32,000 nucleotides of DNA from Acaryochloris marina MBIC11017 (GCF_000018105.1 NC_009925.1:2790001-2822000); one strand, 5' to 3'. Positions 3,686 through 8,059 are shown, counted from the first letter of the stretch. Numbers and translations are program-made. The notes: a model not told the origin generated them from the sequence alone.

Positions 3686-6600
3686 TTAGGAGCTGGAGAT
3701 GCCGTCCAACCGCTCAATTAAATACAAAATCTCCGCCGCATCATCGTAATAGAGAGCATCATGATCTGCTAGAGATCGATCACGGTTACCCCCGAGAATG
3801 GCAACAACTGTCGGAATCAGCTGTTTGATGGAGTCCGATACATCTGGATGATTGACCAGTTCACCGAGCTGCGCCTGAATTTCATCCACTTGTTCTTGAG
3901 CCATGAGCCCCAGAACCTGATCGACCAATTTACCGCCCCCATACTGTGCATACCCCCCCTGCTGTCGATAGGCCAGATAGGCATCACGAGCCTGCAGCCA
4001 TGCCGAGTGAGCCGCTCCTGGATTCCCGGTTGCCGCTTCGATGTCGTGCAGAATGGCGAAAGCTGTCCACGACTGAGCAGCATGACCAAATTGGCGATCA
4101 CACTCGATCGCCCGCTGAATCTCTGTCCGGGCTGCATCGTACCGCTGTAGCTTGCATAAAGTATCGGCAATGTTGTTGCGGGCAAAACCTTCATAGCGCA
4201 AGTCTCCCAACTCCACATAAATATCAGCCGCCTGTCGGTAAAACGTGACCGCCTCTTCCGGACGATTCCAAGTGTTATAAAGATTCCCCAACTCGGTCAA
4301 ACTATTGGCCTGCCCTGCCCGATTGTGGATCTGAGTCTTAATTTCCAAGGACTTCCGGTATGCTGATTCTGCCTGCCCGTAATGCCCTGCGTTCTTATGC
4401 ACCCTGCCCATCTGGTGCCAGATGGAGGCGACTGGACTCGGTTCATTCTGCTGGACAAAGATATCCCGCGCTTCTTTATAGGCTGAGATCGCATCCTCAT
4501 ATCGCCCCTGCATCCTCATCACCGTCGCCAGATTTCCCTTCCCCACAGCAACTTGTCGTACATCTTTCATTTTCTCAGACCGTCTAATACTTTCCTCATA
4601 GGTATCAGCCGCTTCATCCAGCTGTCCTAAGTCCGTGAGGCAATCTGCCTGCCTCGTCAAGGACTTAGCAGCCATCCGTTCCCCCTGTTCTCCCAACGCC
4701 TCGAACAACTTCTGAGTGGTGCGAAGCAGCTCCAACGCTAGGGCTGCCTGTCCCCCTTTCACCAAAACCTGACCGAGCATAGAATGTGCCACCGCCAAAT
4801 GATAATCAGCACCGCTGTAGGCATTGGCTCCAGCCTCCTTGGCCTGCTCCAGTAATGTCTGCGCCCGCTCATAGGCTGTCTGCAACTGTCCGTCCTGAAG
4901 CAGCCGCTCAATCACCAGCTGCTCATTTTCAAACCGAACATGGCCCCAATTCGGGATTGCTGCCGCCGCCCGTTCCCGCAGCACCACCGCCCGCGCCAGC
5001 GCCTGGGGGCGACCCAGCTCTGCCAGCAGGTGCTCAATGCTGCCAGCCATAGCGGCAATCGCTTCCGCCCTCGACGCATCTGCCGTCAACTGCTCTGCCA
5101 ACCAATCCAGCAGCATCATTAGATTGGGGAGTTCCAGCAGCGTTAACCGAAAGGCCAATCTGGCGTCTTTAGACCGCTGCTGGTATAGATAATCCACCAG
5201 TTGCACCATTGCCTCAGCCCAGGTCTCTGTCAGCGCCGCCAACTGCTCCGACCCTTGCCCCAACTTCAGATAAGCAGGCAACGCTGGATCCAAGCGCAGA
5301 TAGCTATACTCCTGCGCCTCCGCCATCCCCACCCCAATCAGCTGCTCCGCCACTGCATCCGCCGCATCAGCTTCAATTCCCATTACCTGCGACAAAATGA
5401 ACCGATTCCCACCCCCATGCAACACCGCCAGCCGATTCACCCGCTCCCGCGTCTCCTCCGGCAACCGCCGCAACGACAGCTCCACACTCGCATACAGGGA
5501 ATTCTCCCGGTCTCCCCGATTCTGCGATTCCAACTTCGCCATTAGCTTCGCCAAGTTCTCCGTTGTTGCCCGCACCCCATGGGCCACTTCTCGTGCCAAC
5601 AAAACCAGCGCCCGGGGATGACAATTCACCGTCTCCACCAGCTCTTTGATCTCCTCCGGTGTCGTCGCATTATCCGTCTCTGGCGGCATCCACCCCTCCC
5701 GAGCCATCACCTGCTCCACCAACTGAGTCGCCTCGCCCTGACTCAACCGTCCCAACTCCACGGTATTTCCGCCCACATCAAATGGCTTTGGCAATCGCTC
5801 CCGGCTAGTAAACACTACCCGACATCGCGGATCTGCCTTCAACAACCGCTGACACAGCTCCAACAGCTCCGTCACATCTGCTACCCCGGCGGGGTTATTC
5901 CCTTCAGCATCCGGTAGCACTGACTCCATATTGTCCAGTAAAATTACCGTCGGGAAATCCTGCAATGCCCGTACCACGGGCTGCAATGCTTTGTCTAAAT
6001 CGTCCCCATACTGGGCCACAGTATACTTTGGCACCAACTGCTGCCCAATCGCATCCAGTACTCCCGAAACATCCTGGACATTCTGCGGTTCCACGCTTAC
6101 AAATGCCGCCCGCTGCCACCGACCTGACCGCACCAGCCATCGACACAATTCCACCGCCAGGGCCGTCTTGCCCATGCCGCCACTGCCCTTGATCACTACA
6201 TAGTTTTCTTGGGCCAGCAATCGCTCAACATATAGCAGATGCCGACTCCGCCCCACAAACTGATGGGCTGGAGGTTCTGGCAACCGTCCCAACTGTAGCT
6301 CTCGTCGTTCACCCAATTTCCGGAGTGCATCTTCCCCTTGCTTTTCCGTAAATAACTGGGGGTCATCTGCATCTTGATAGAGAACGGGTACAAACCAGTC
6401 CTGTAACTTCAAATCCCCTGCCCCCATCACCTTGAACCGAAAGGGATTGTTGTACAGGGCCATCTGCCCCGCCAGCATGGCATCCCCAATCCGTTTCCCC
6501 TCTGCCAAGCTTTTGTAGAACTGCTCTACAAATTTCTGGGCCGTGACCACCAGTACGGAGTGGGTCATGGCCACCACCGACCCCACGCCCTGTTCTAATA

Positions 6601-8059
6601 ACTTTGCGGCCACTGACGCTTGCGGATCGGCTGTCGATTGGGCTGTCTGACAGGCCTCCAGAATAATCAGCGGTACGCCATACTCCCGCAATGCGGCGGC
6701 CAGTTTATCAGCATGGACGAGATCCAATAATCGTTGGCCTAACTTTTGACTGTCTTGCGGATCTTCAAAACACAAGGCTCCTAATCCCACTCTGCGGTCA
6801 TAGACCCCATGACCATCAAAATGGACTATTTCATAGGGGTCTTTTTCGTCAATACCTCGCTGCAAAGCTTCCTGCAAAGCCGCAAAGGTAGGCGGTTCTA
6901 AGATATCCACCTTGACCAGGGCTTCTCCCAGGTTTTCCACAGCTTGGATTAATGGAATGGCACTGGCCCGATGGTCTAGATACCCCACAGAATTCCCTTC
7001 TGAGTCCTTTTCAGGCCGGGGGCTAATCAATAAAACTCGTATTGGTAAATCCGCTTCAATGATTCGCGTTACCTTCCGTTTCGGCAACCGACGCCGCACT
7101 CGAACCCCGTTATTCCCTTCGGAAAGATAGCCCGTGCCATCATGCAGAATCTCCCAAGGGAGGGCTAGTAGGTCACTAGCCGATTCCTGAAACTGAGCGA
7201 CTTTATCATCCTCAGACCCTTCCTTGGGTTCAGAATCAACCCGCACCGAAAAACGGCGACTACCGCTGGCGCGACGCCATGCTTCTAATGGCTCACGGGC
7301 TGACTCTCCTGCCAATGCAGCTTTGTACAGATCCTGTCCCCACTGGGGTAGGTTATCTTCTGTCTTGATGGCTCGGTCCTTAAAAACCCCAGATGGCCAG
7401 CGGAAATAGCTTTCGATATACCAGCGAATATCATCTAGTTCCAAGGGTCCGATTGGAGCAGTAAACCGATAACGCCGACTGGTGATGGCACCGCTATTAT
7501 TGGCTGGGACATAGATAAGTTCAGCCGTTGCTTCAGCCCGACGCTTGCCATTTTCTTCAGAAATGCATGGATCAATCAGCTCAAGAATCAACTCCTCAAC
7601 TGGCTCAACTTCAATGGTGATTCCCGTTTTCCAGTCCGTGGGGAGTTGCTTACCCAAAGCAGCAAAGATCTGAGGCAAGGCATCATCAAAACCAGTGGGG
7701 GTGTCTTGAATAAAAATGTAAGCCAGCTCATCAGGGAACAACAGCTTGAGAATTCCAGGCTGCACCCCTGGCAAAACCACTGGAATCACTTTGTAATCGG
7801 CTTTCTCTTTGGCAATCTCCAGCGCTAGCCTGACTTCGCGTTGCACCCAATCCGAACTCAGGGCATCAATACTGAGTACCACCAAAAAGCAGCGAGCATC
7901 GCGAATGCTGGCTTCGATCTCCGCGTTGAGGTCATCTCCACCAGTCAACTGCCGTGAGTCAACCCAAGGTGTGTGACCATAGAGTTCTAGAACTTTCCTG
8001 AGCTTGGCGACCGTATCATCATTCTTAGTAGAGTGAGAAATAAAGATATGCTCTGCCAT
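3686..8059 (-). CDS. TIR - CHAT (caspase-like protease) - NB-ARC/STAND P-loop NTPase - TPR multidomain protein; candidate immune/programmed-cell-death sensor
   Basis: Uninterrupted 1457-aa ORF starting at ATG 8059. TIR: IFISHS...[12 protein letters not shown]: [21 protein letters not shown]. Walker A: GSGGMGKT. Walker B: VILLDN. NB-ARC-like: VVFTSRE and CHPRAL. About 7 TPRs lie C-terminally. All other ORFs inside are antisense or off-frame shadows. Confidence 0.9.
3950..4822 (-). other. TPR array (aa ~1080-1370, about seven repeats)
   Basis: Repeated 34-aa pattern with (W/L)xxLGxxYxxxGxYxxAxxxYxxAL-like spacing, e.g. [25 protein letters not shown] and [24 protein letters not shown]. Confidence 0.75.
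5360..6262 (-). other. NB-ARC-type STAND NTPase module (aa ~600-900)
   Basis: Walker A GSGGMGKT (6164..6187, Lys631 codon 6167..6169), Walker B LLDN (Asp709 codon 5933..5935), FTSR sensor-like motif, CHPRAL (GxP/GLPL-like) motif. Confidence 0.75.
6374..7174 (-). other. CHAT protease domain (aa ~296-562)
   Basis: [12 protein letters not shown] entry motif. Putative catalytic His417 in HFDGHG (codon 6809..6811) and Cys470 in LEACQT (codon 6650..6652). This is the caspase-fold His/Cys spacing. Confidence 0.75.
7646..8053 (-). other. TIR domain (aa ~3-138) of the STAND protein
   Basis: FISHS start and CFLVVLS strand. S-x-W-x3-E motif with E75 (codon 7835..7837) at the position of the catalytic Glu of NADase-type TIRs. 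Confidence 0.75.

Follow-up and report, generated by a model that had tools for sequence, protein, structure and literature searches.

A single-chain NLR-like protein of Acaryochloris marina with predicted TIR and bipartite CHAT effector modules

A gene of Acaryochloris marina MBIC11017, which we analyzed within a 32,000-nucleotide stretch of that genome (GCF_000018105.1 NC_009925.1:2790001-2822000; hereafter the window), most likely encodes a single-gene infection or cell-death sensor with two outputs. It occupies positions 3686..8059 on the minus strand as one uninterrupted open reading frame (ORF) that begins with ATG and specifies 1457 amino acids plus a stop codon. Its product is 100% identical to an A. 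marina protein annotated only as 'tetratricopeptide repeat protein / TPR domain protein'. We consider it moderately probable that this receptor is a single-polypeptide NLR-like sensor in which ligand-triggered oligomerization switches on two parallel, proximity-activated outputs, proteolysis being the primary one. The observed basis for this proposal comprises the domains, the TIR and CHAT folds, catalytic residues that are correctly placed and conserved, the fixed architecture, the solitary gene, its horizontal spread, and a divergence between congeners that is focused on the sensor.

The mechanism that we envision, in which we infer the trigger, the oligomerization, both enzyme activities and the defense role, would, by analogy with Avs, bacterial NLR-like proteins and plant TIR-NLRs, proceed as follows. 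The C-terminal helical arm, composed of a region that we call MID, about seven TPRs and a conserved C-terminal domain (CT), would bind a trigger, for which a conserved phage protein or some other sign of infection is the likeliest candidate. This would free the nucleotide-controlled NB-ARC-type STAND NTPase (NOD) for nucleotide exchange and then for oligomerization. The oligomer would gather the N-terminal modules and thereby render the bipartite CHAT cysteine protease, the constant and primary effector, active; in most family members, including the A. marina protein, a flexibly tethered TIR NADase would be activated as well, and proteolysis together with NAD+ loss would lead to growth arrest or death of the infected cell. 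TIR NADases require TIR-TIR contacts, and the structure of a SAVED-CHAT filament (8tl0), which is among our fold matches, provides a precedent for CHAT activation by assembly. TIR-NLR and Avs are known single-gene defenses (PMC9122126, PMC13581612), STAND-fused proteases are activated by phage proteins (PMC12642450), and in type IV Thoeris TIR and caspase-like proteins act together (bioRxiv 10.1101/2024.10.24.620036).

Domain architecture and catalytic residues

Searches against Pfam recovered four modules above their curated cut-offs: TIR_2 over residues 5-128 (E=4e-24), CHAT over residues 296-539 (E=1.6e-23, 84 bits against a cut-off of 24), NB-ARC over residues 618-855 (32.5 bits against 23.5), and TPR_12 in four stretches within ~1090-1335, corresponding to about seven repeats. 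This order, TIR, CHAT, STAND NTPase and TPR, is the one that a first-pass annotation of the window had read from motifs. The same annotation was right about the extent, length and integrity of the ORF, to which we add the strand, and about its flanking genes, pdxJ and a Uma2-family gene. Likewise, every motif lies where it had been placed: DWVQRE at 70-75 (Glu75), HFDGHG at 413-418 (His417), LEACQT at 467-472 (Cys470) and, in the NTPase, GSGGMGKT at 625-632 (Lys631), LLDN at 707-710 (Asp709), FTSR at 750-753 and CHPRAL at 813-818. The GC (guanine plus cytosine) content of the gene is 54.1%, compared with 47.6% for the remainder of the window.

The TIR domain spans residues 1-135 (7655..8059; this and all further parts of the gene lie on the minus strand), as supported by the Pfam match, by alignment with AbTir and Cat1 and by structure comparison with Foldseek. 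In the sequence alignment, Glu75 (codon 7835-7837) coincides with the glutamates of the AbTir 'DWTNYE' and Cat1 'DWCWDE' motifs; we take the AbTir residue to be the catalytic E208, and E642 of SARM1 to be the equivalent catalytic position. The modeled domain superposes on the TIR domains of AbTir, SARM1 and SPARTA, with a target-normalized TM-score of 0.68 and a root mean square deviation of 2.8 for AbTir (7uxu). Here and below, conservation was counted over 117 full-length close homologues and over 65 full-length representatives of the wider family, which are 36-55% identical to the A. marina protein over residues 1-600. Glu75 is present in all 117 close homologues and in 46 of the 47 representatives that bear a TIR, the remaining one having valine. 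With the fold supported by both profile and structure searches and the glutamate at its expected position, as the first-pass annotation had proposed, the TIR is predicted from these comparisons to be an NADase-type enzyme.

The CHAT module required two rounds of modeling. A first AlphaFold run on residues 1-600 with 17 close homologues gave a mean pLDDT (predicted local distance difference test score) of 64 and a pTM (predicted template modeling score) of 0.36, was poor outside the TIR, and returned only TIR matches in Foldseek. It was replaced by a second run on residues 145-600 with a 72-sequence alignment, which reached a pLDDT of 92.6 and a pTM of 0.92. In this model His417 (codon 6809-6811) follows strand 411-414 and Cys470 (codon 6650-6652) follows strand 464-467; in caspase-fold proteases, the histidine and the cysteine of the dyad sit after the corresponding strands. 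The top Foldseek matches were Csx29 (TPR-CHAT), the CHAT anti-sigma factor DdvA, separase and SAVED-CHAT, followed by caspase-9 and caspase-3 (by rank, 7zoq_A at E=9e-11, then 8eey_B, 8rot_A, 5fc2_B and 8tl0); these CHAT fold matches have TM-scores of only ~0.4-0.46 and identities of 10-17%. A single-sequence search of PDB sequences with the CHAT region found no match. Profile, structure matches and model placement thus bear out the CHAT fold and the intact dyad that had been claimed for it.

The module is larger than its Pfam match. The catalytic half, recognized by Pfam CHAT and the conserved dyad, comprises residues 296-565 (6365..7174). It is preceded by a segment that we call X (residues 154-295; 7175..7600), which has no Pfam match and is recognized from the model and Foldseek. 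Because the alignments to Csx29 and separase cover ~430 of 456 columns and X packs with the catalytic half as one unit, in the model X appears to be no spacer but the first, N-terminal half of a CHAT module in two parts. Separase and Csx29 likewise consist of an N-terminal pseudo-protease half and a catalytic half. We also considered X as a nucleotide-sensor domain and rejected this assignment, since X lacks a Pfam match, models inside the CHAT unit and is present in members that have no TIR.

The dyad is invariant in all 117 close homologues; among the distant representatives the histidine is kept in 59 of 65 and the cysteine in 58 of 65. CHAT is the most conserved module of the protein, with 57 of 270 positions conserved at 90% or more among the 65 representatives, which exceeds the nucleotide-binding domain. 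These values bear on a further explanation, namely that one 'effector' is non-enzymatic, the TIR serving only as an oligomerization adaptor or CHAT as a spacer or scaffold between TIR and NOD. In animals, TIR domains frequently serve as adaptors, one representative carries the valine in place of Glu75, and ~13% of the representatives, with or without a TIR, lack the CHAT dyad and still keep the whole module. Against this stand the invariance of Glu75, His417 and Cys470 in close homologues and their near-invariance in distant ones, the rank of CHAT as the most conserved module, and the identity of the closest TIRs by sequence, which are the NAD-consuming bacterial domains AbTir, Cat1, SPARTA TIR-APAZ and a SAVED-TIR model. 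We therefore regard a purely structural role of either module as very unlikely. We also asked if loss of the dyad depends on the presence of the TIR and rejected this dependence: loss occurs in 7 of 47 representatives with a TIR and in 2 of 16 or so without.

The NOD comprises residues 600-900 (5360..6262), with the Walker A motif GSGGMGKT at 6164-6187 alongside Walker B LLDN, FTSR and CHPRAL. The NACHT and nSTAND3 models stay under their Pfam thresholds for this region (21.8 bits against 26.7, and 25.8 against 27.2, respectively). A profile of the NOD region matches the plant NLRs Sr35, ZAR1, MLA13 and Roq1 best (E ~1e-4), whereas a single-sequence PDB search with the region returned noise only and no close relative. 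Because plant NLRs are the best solved relatives found by the profile, this sequence comparison supports placing the NOD in the NB-ARC / AP-ATPase branch of the STAND NTPases, in agreement with the earlier reading of its motifs. All 65 representatives have Lys631 and Asp709, and 64 of them have Arg753 of FTSR; Lys631 is also invariant in the 117 close homologues. The candidate for an MHD-type histidine, placed by sequence, is His881 (LAVLHGG), a position that is occupied by H/Q/R in 25/18/13 of the 65 representatives. As this histidine is not conserved, we do not claim an ADP-locked autoinhibition.

The remaining part of the protein forms the presumptive sensor arm. MID (residues 901-1090; 4790..5359), which lies between NOD and the repeats, is helical, has no Pfam match and is taken as part of this arm. 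The TPR array (residues 1091-1335; 4055..4789), called from Pfam TPR_12 and related models, is the presumed ligand sensor. CT (residues 1336-1457; 3689..4054) has no Pfam match above threshold. Its last ~35 residues (window 3689-3800, minus strand; residues ~1420-1457) are far more conserved than the preceding 60 and almost identical between the two Acaryochloris alleles compared below; they form a possible docking or autoinhibitory tail.

A large family with a fixed core and a dispensable TIR

The A. marina protein is one member of a large family. Over their full length, more than 120 proteins of 1445-1497 residues share 63-82% identity with it, the named ones coming from filamentous cyanobacteria and Chloroflexota, and an exhaustive search with residues 1-600 yielded 639 cluster representatives at E<=1e-30. 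The order X, CHAT, NOD, MID, TPR, CT is shared by all 65 full-length representatives, preceded by a TIR in most of them. The gene is thus a singleton, as the first-pass annotation had it, and at the same time belongs to a large cross-phylum family instead of being an oddity of one genome.

Among 185,579 species genomes, with one genome per species, we found the family in at least 575, which belong to more than 10 phyla. The best 80 loci come from Cyanobacteriota, Chloroflexota, Acidobacteriota, KSB1, Verrucomicrobiota, Planctomycetota, Nitrospirota, Bacteroidota and others, with Thiothrix, Parabeggiatoa and Magnetococcales as further hosts. Over X-CHAT, copies from KSB1, Opitutales and Proteobacteria share 71-74% of their residues with the Acaryochloris protein, as much as other cyanobacteria do, and therefore the gene moves between phyla by horizontal transfer.

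Some members lack the TIR and begin directly at the CHAT module. Six genome loci were flagged as TIR-less by the ORF caller, and four of these proved to be artifacts with a TIR coded upstream, in two cases in another frame and in two in the same frame (a stop codon or a mis-called start). Three other loci were confirmed as TIR-less at the DNA level, so that the TIR is absent in at least three members. On a neighbor-joining tree, TIR-less members, including any such artifacts, are scattered, which points to repeated loss or gain of the TIR. One protein without a detected TIR, P0268 (1662 residues), carries instead a C-terminal PNP_UDP_1 domain (residues ~1370-1620, E=9e-24) that replaces the usual CT, so a second, nucleotide-targeting effector can attach at either end of the chassis. 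PNP_UDP_1 is among the NLR-associated domains surveyed earlier (bioRxiv 10.1101/2020.01.06.895854). CHAT, NOD and sensor hence form a constant chassis, and the TIR is a common, dispensable second module. The first-pass annotation had placed two apparently competent effectors on one sensor chassis: both catalytic sets are in place, but the two modules are not equal, CHAT being always present and the TIR absent in some lineages.

Two loci differ from the solitary arrangement. In a metagenome-assembled genome of Pyrinomonadaceae, two tandem copies of the family gene lie on the same strand (locus L083, 312-4718 and 8273-13936); the second is read in frame from an upstream AAA_35 ATPase domain as an 1887-residue ORF by a simple ORF caller, which may reflect a genuine fusion or an overlooked stop or start. 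In locus L093 (1-8969), the start of the TIR-less member P0235 lies 4 bases ahead of the stop codon of an upstream gene whose 615-residue product, by eye, resembles a CHAT domain without the His/Cys dyad, and a 1164-residue TPR+CHAT protein is encoded further upstream. This locus may represent a multi-CHAT operon variant of the system.

The family also informs how the two predicted enzymes could relate to each other. Between TIR and CHAT lies a linker of ~18 residues (136-153; 7601..7654) that varies in sequence and length in the alignment of the 65 representatives, is the least conserved segment of the whole protein, and had low pLDDT in the first model. The first-pass annotation had suggested that CHAT may process its own chain, and one can picture a cascade within a single protein, in which CHAT cuts the polypeptide, for example in this linker, to release or license the TIR, or a nucleotide made by the TIR activates CHAT. 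Both steps have parallels elsewhere: in type IV Thoeris, N7-cADPR made by a TIR activates a caspase-like protease (bioRxiv 10.1101/2024.10.24.620036), and STAND-fused proteases activate latent effectors through site-specific cleavage (PMC12642450). A flexible linker and two catalytic sets that are both invariant in the 117 close homologues would suit such a scheme. The alignment of the 65 representatives shows no conserved cleavage motif in the linker, however, which argues against self-processing there. Furthermore, TIR-less members keep the CHAT dyad, so CHAT needs no product or substrate of the TIR; conversely, the seven TIR-bearing representatives without the dyad keep Glu75, so the TIR needs no CHAT activity. 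Nor did we detect a recognizable nucleotide-sensor domain, X folding within the CHAT module. We consider this cascade unlikely. The same holds for the idea that TIR and CHAT are coupled inside one NLR-type machine, with the fast-evolving X as a second specificity surface, to form a fused 'TIR-to-caspase' death switch. In such a switch the protease could, for instance, be licensed by a nucleotide from the neighboring TIR, or could itself free or reshape the TIR assembly. Two outputs that run in parallel from one oligomer remain the arrangement that we favor.

Sensor divergence, genomic context and the case for immunity

The gene has a syntenic counterpart in a second Acaryochloris lineage, where Uma2, three small ORFs, a TPR protein and recN again surround it, so that two alleles could be compared. 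Protein identity between the two lineages is 93-98% for the flanking genes (RecN 98.3%) and 82.4% for the receptor. This divergence is uneven: TIR and CHAT are each 94% identical, the nucleotide-binding domain 93% and the ARC region 88%, whereas MID (78%), CT (74%), X (73%) and TPR (67%) have diverged much further. The ratio of nonsynonymous to synonymous divergence (dN/dS) follows the same division, with 0.43-0.50 for MID, TPR and CT (TPR 0.43, MID 0.48) compared with 0.09 for CHAT and the nucleotide-binding domain and 0.04 for recN. Because dS itself is uneven along the gene (TIR 0.16, TPR 0.53 and X 1.0, with 0.06-0.19 in the flanks), the comparison suggests that segments have been replaced by recombination. 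The sites that differ between the two alleles are those that vary across the family, with p from 4e-2 for the TIR down to 3e-15 for the TPRs, and in the TPR region the congener's allele is no closer to the A. marina protein than are alleles of other lineages. Stable enzymes and a stable switch combined with a fast-changing sensor are the pattern of immune receptors, observed here in one allele pair. Together with the domain logic and the horizontal transfer, this sensor diversification between congeners argues indirectly for an immune receptor. The wide distribution of the family, the deviating GC content of the gene and its variable, partnerless surroundings are likewise signals that conflict genes typically show.

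The surroundings of the gene are those of a solitary element. In the window it is flanked by pdxJ (2766-3488) and by the divergent Uma2-family gene on its upstream side (8418-8978, plus strand). No neighbor is conserved in six genomes inspected by hand, and all-against-all BLAST clustering of flanking ORFs, taken from 88 loci, revealed no conserved partner at the ~85 loci compared, only generic families such as response regulators; among the 138 nearest neighbors, no Pfam family occurs in more than three loci. This agrees with the earlier description of a singleton without a partner ORF. A few of the 138 match defense models, given here as raw counts (mad3 three times, AriA, SduA and AbiLi twice each, and one RT-helicase), and ApeA/HEPN, a PIN-domain protein and IS200-type Y1 transposases occur as defense or mobile-element neighbors elsewhere. 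Association with defense islands, which the first-pass annotation had named as a check, appears weak on these counts.

A Uma2 gene also adjoins the family gene in Leptolyngbya sp. SIO1E4 (downstream, same strand), and IS200-type Y1 transposase genes lie just downstream of it in Leptothoe and Nodosilinea (coordinates of these Uma2 and Y1 neighbors: L001 12535-13140, L004 12722-13279 and L005 12405-12998). Each of the two families accounts for only 2 of the 138 nearest neighbors, and their adjacency may reflect chance or insertion hotspots.

Several observations weigh against the proposal of an infection sensor with two enzymatic outputs. The dyad-less CHAT modules described above are one. The window neighbors are housekeeping genes (pdxJ, recN, coaE, a GNAT acetyltransferase, a cytochrome c and the flavoprotein described below; the recN call rests on SMC_N matches of its homologue), and the 138 nearest neighbors in the family are mostly metabolic. 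The gene has been retained vertically at the same locus in two Acaryochloris lineages. Searches of PLSDB plasmids, phage genomes and IMG/VR returned only distant CHAT-NOD paralogues of 25-31% identity. Across the whole family, sensor and ARC region are conserved to a similar degree, which also fits a fixed endogenous ligand; the divergence analysis covers one allele pair, and all its dN/dS values are below 1. Comparison with PADLOC gave matches at the level of single domains, the best being to short-pAgo and ThsB TIR models, with SAVED_CHAT at 1e-4, and no whole-protein system model. Finally, our literature search found neither a published experiment on any family member nor a paper that describes the TIR-CHAT-NB-ARC-TPR architecture; the first-pass annotation likewise had named no experimental description.

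Some of these points would equally suit a protein that is not antiviral, that is, a regulated cell-death or stress switch that senses an endogenous cue. Housekeeping surroundings in the window and at most other loci, retention of one locus in two lineages, absence from the plasmids of PLSDB and from phages, and an alignment that extends family-wide over every module, TPR and CT among them, would fit such a switch. Many hosts (Leptolyngbya, Nodosilinea, Thiothrix, Parabeggiatoa, Anaerolineae and Caldilineaceae) are filamentous or aggregate-forming. This suits the theme of apoptosis-like systems developed for multicellular and filamentous bacteria (PMC7159879, PMC8195603). Other hosts, Cyanobium and Acaryochloris, are unicellular lineages, which speaks against this reading. 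The 71-74% identity across phyla and the scattered distribution indicate frequent horizontal transfer, which would be unusual for a developmental regulator; the divergence from the syntenic congener is concentrated in the sensor; and some neighbors (ApeA/HEPN, PIN-domain, Y1 transposase, AriA-like) are defense or mobile genes. On balance we judge an endogenous-cue switch fairly unlikely and keep to the infection or cell-death sensor. Overall, the immune-sensor interpretation first put forward for this gene is partly supported: its anatomy, its catalytic residues and the solitary gene hold, and the view of the two effectors, of X and of self-processing is refined as described above.

The remainder of the window contains other features. 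A flavoprotein of the succinate-dehydrogenase/fumarate-reductase type was recognized by Pfam FAD_binding_2 and Succ_DH_flav_C. At 24963-25179 on the minus strand, Rfam RF00174 (34.6 bits, which exceeds its gathering score) identifies a cobalamin riboswitch. It immediately precedes, and reaches slightly into the called start of, an ORF for a HupE/UreJ-family membrane protein (24301-24978, minus strand), which suggests a metal (Ni/Co) transporter under B12 control. Five ORFs have no Pfam match (9311-9715, 10449-10727, 10878-11414, 13624-14376 and 27924-29333). Three of these, of 134, 92 and 178 amino acids, are probably real genes because they are 96-98% identical in the syntenic contig of the congener. 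On the plus strand at 14349-15380, a 343-residue ORF consists almost entirely of pentapeptide repeats (A/S-N-L-x-x, read from the translation), and its start slightly overlaps the end of the upstream, Pfam-less 250-residue ORF.

Relation to known systems

The closest single-chain counterparts are TIR-NLR, a single-gene defense of E. coli P2/P4 hotspots (PMC9122126), and the TIR-bearing Avs proteins. Like these, the A. marina protein combines in one chain an N-terminal TIR with the catalytic glutamate, a central STAND NTPase and a TPR-type sensor, has no partner gene, and is presumably activated by oligomerization. Unlike TIR-NLR, it holds a bipartite CHAT of ~410 residues between TIR and NOD and additionally carries MID and CT. 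Consistent with this difference, the PADLOC model for TIR-NLR (PDLC03015, profile length 824) matches only residues 5-96, that is the TIR, at E=0.021. The PDB chain 9m0n (824 residues), which may be the TIR-NLR protein, also matches the TIR only. No PADLOC Avs model matches at E<=0.1 in the 2023 database, later Avs families being outside it.

The arrangement of the protease is that of the protease-STANDs and bacterial Apaf-1-like proteins (PMC12642450, PMC13581612), in which a caspase-like protease immediately precedes a STAND NTPase that carries a repeat sensor; as in the protease-STANDs, binding of the trigger to the sensor would presumably turn the protease on. In the A. marina protein, however, the protease is a bipartite CHAT with an extra TIR, and the sensor is made of TPRs instead of a WD40 propeller. 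Moreover, unlike the characterized protease-STANDs, the A. marina family has neither an adjacent latent effector nor a conserved neighbor.

The pairing of a TIR enzyme with a caspase-fold protease is shared with type IV Thoeris, which needs both catalytic centers (bioRxiv 10.1101/2024.10.24.620036). There, the two are encoded by separate genes, communicate through diffusible N7-cADPR, and the TIR protein is the sensor, whereas in A. marina both domains are fused to an NLR-type switch. Further differences are that no signal-binding domain was detected, that TIR-less members exist, and that a single gene is flanked by pdxJ and Uma2.

In its fold and His/Cys dyad, the protease resembles Csx29 of the type III-E Craspase, SAVED-CHAT, separase and DdvA. 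Unlike Csx29 and SAVED-CHAT, it has no CRISPR, SAVED or membrane context and would be controlled by the STAND NTPase in its own chain. Among the window ORFs that were scanned with Pfam, none has a Cas domain (no search for CRISPR repeats was made), and the family has no conserved neighbors, so that the resemblance to Craspase is at the level of the fold.

Bacterial NLR-like proteins normally carry one effector, which is freely swapped between relatives. In the present family, a single chassis with a single type of sensor retains, across phyla, two predicted enzymatic outputs: cleavage of NAD+ and proteolysis of the caspase type. If it is a defense gene, it would offer a compact single-gene system in which to ask why two death effectors beat one, for example through resistance to phage inhibitors of either arm or through ordered execution; it would provide a test of CHAT protease activation by a STAND oligomer, and a route to whichever trigger is so conserved that hosts from cyanobacteria to Acidobacteriota can sense it. 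It would also unite, in one bacterial protein, the TIR arm and the caspase arm known from eukaryotic innate immunity, and, should the unlikely coupling of TIR and CHAT prove true, would be a direct prokaryotic counterpart that links resistosome-like and apoptosome-like outputs in one protein and has spread horizontally across more than 10 phyla. Earlier surveys found TIR and CHAT, each on its own, at the N-termini of NLR-like proteins in multicellular bacteria (bioRxiv 10.1101/2020.01.06.895854, PMC7159879, PMC8195603). New here is a large family that spans many phyla with a fixed CHAT-NOD-sensor order, a constant CHAT and a usually present TIR. The A. marina protein fits no modeled defense system, and its concept fits existing frameworks.

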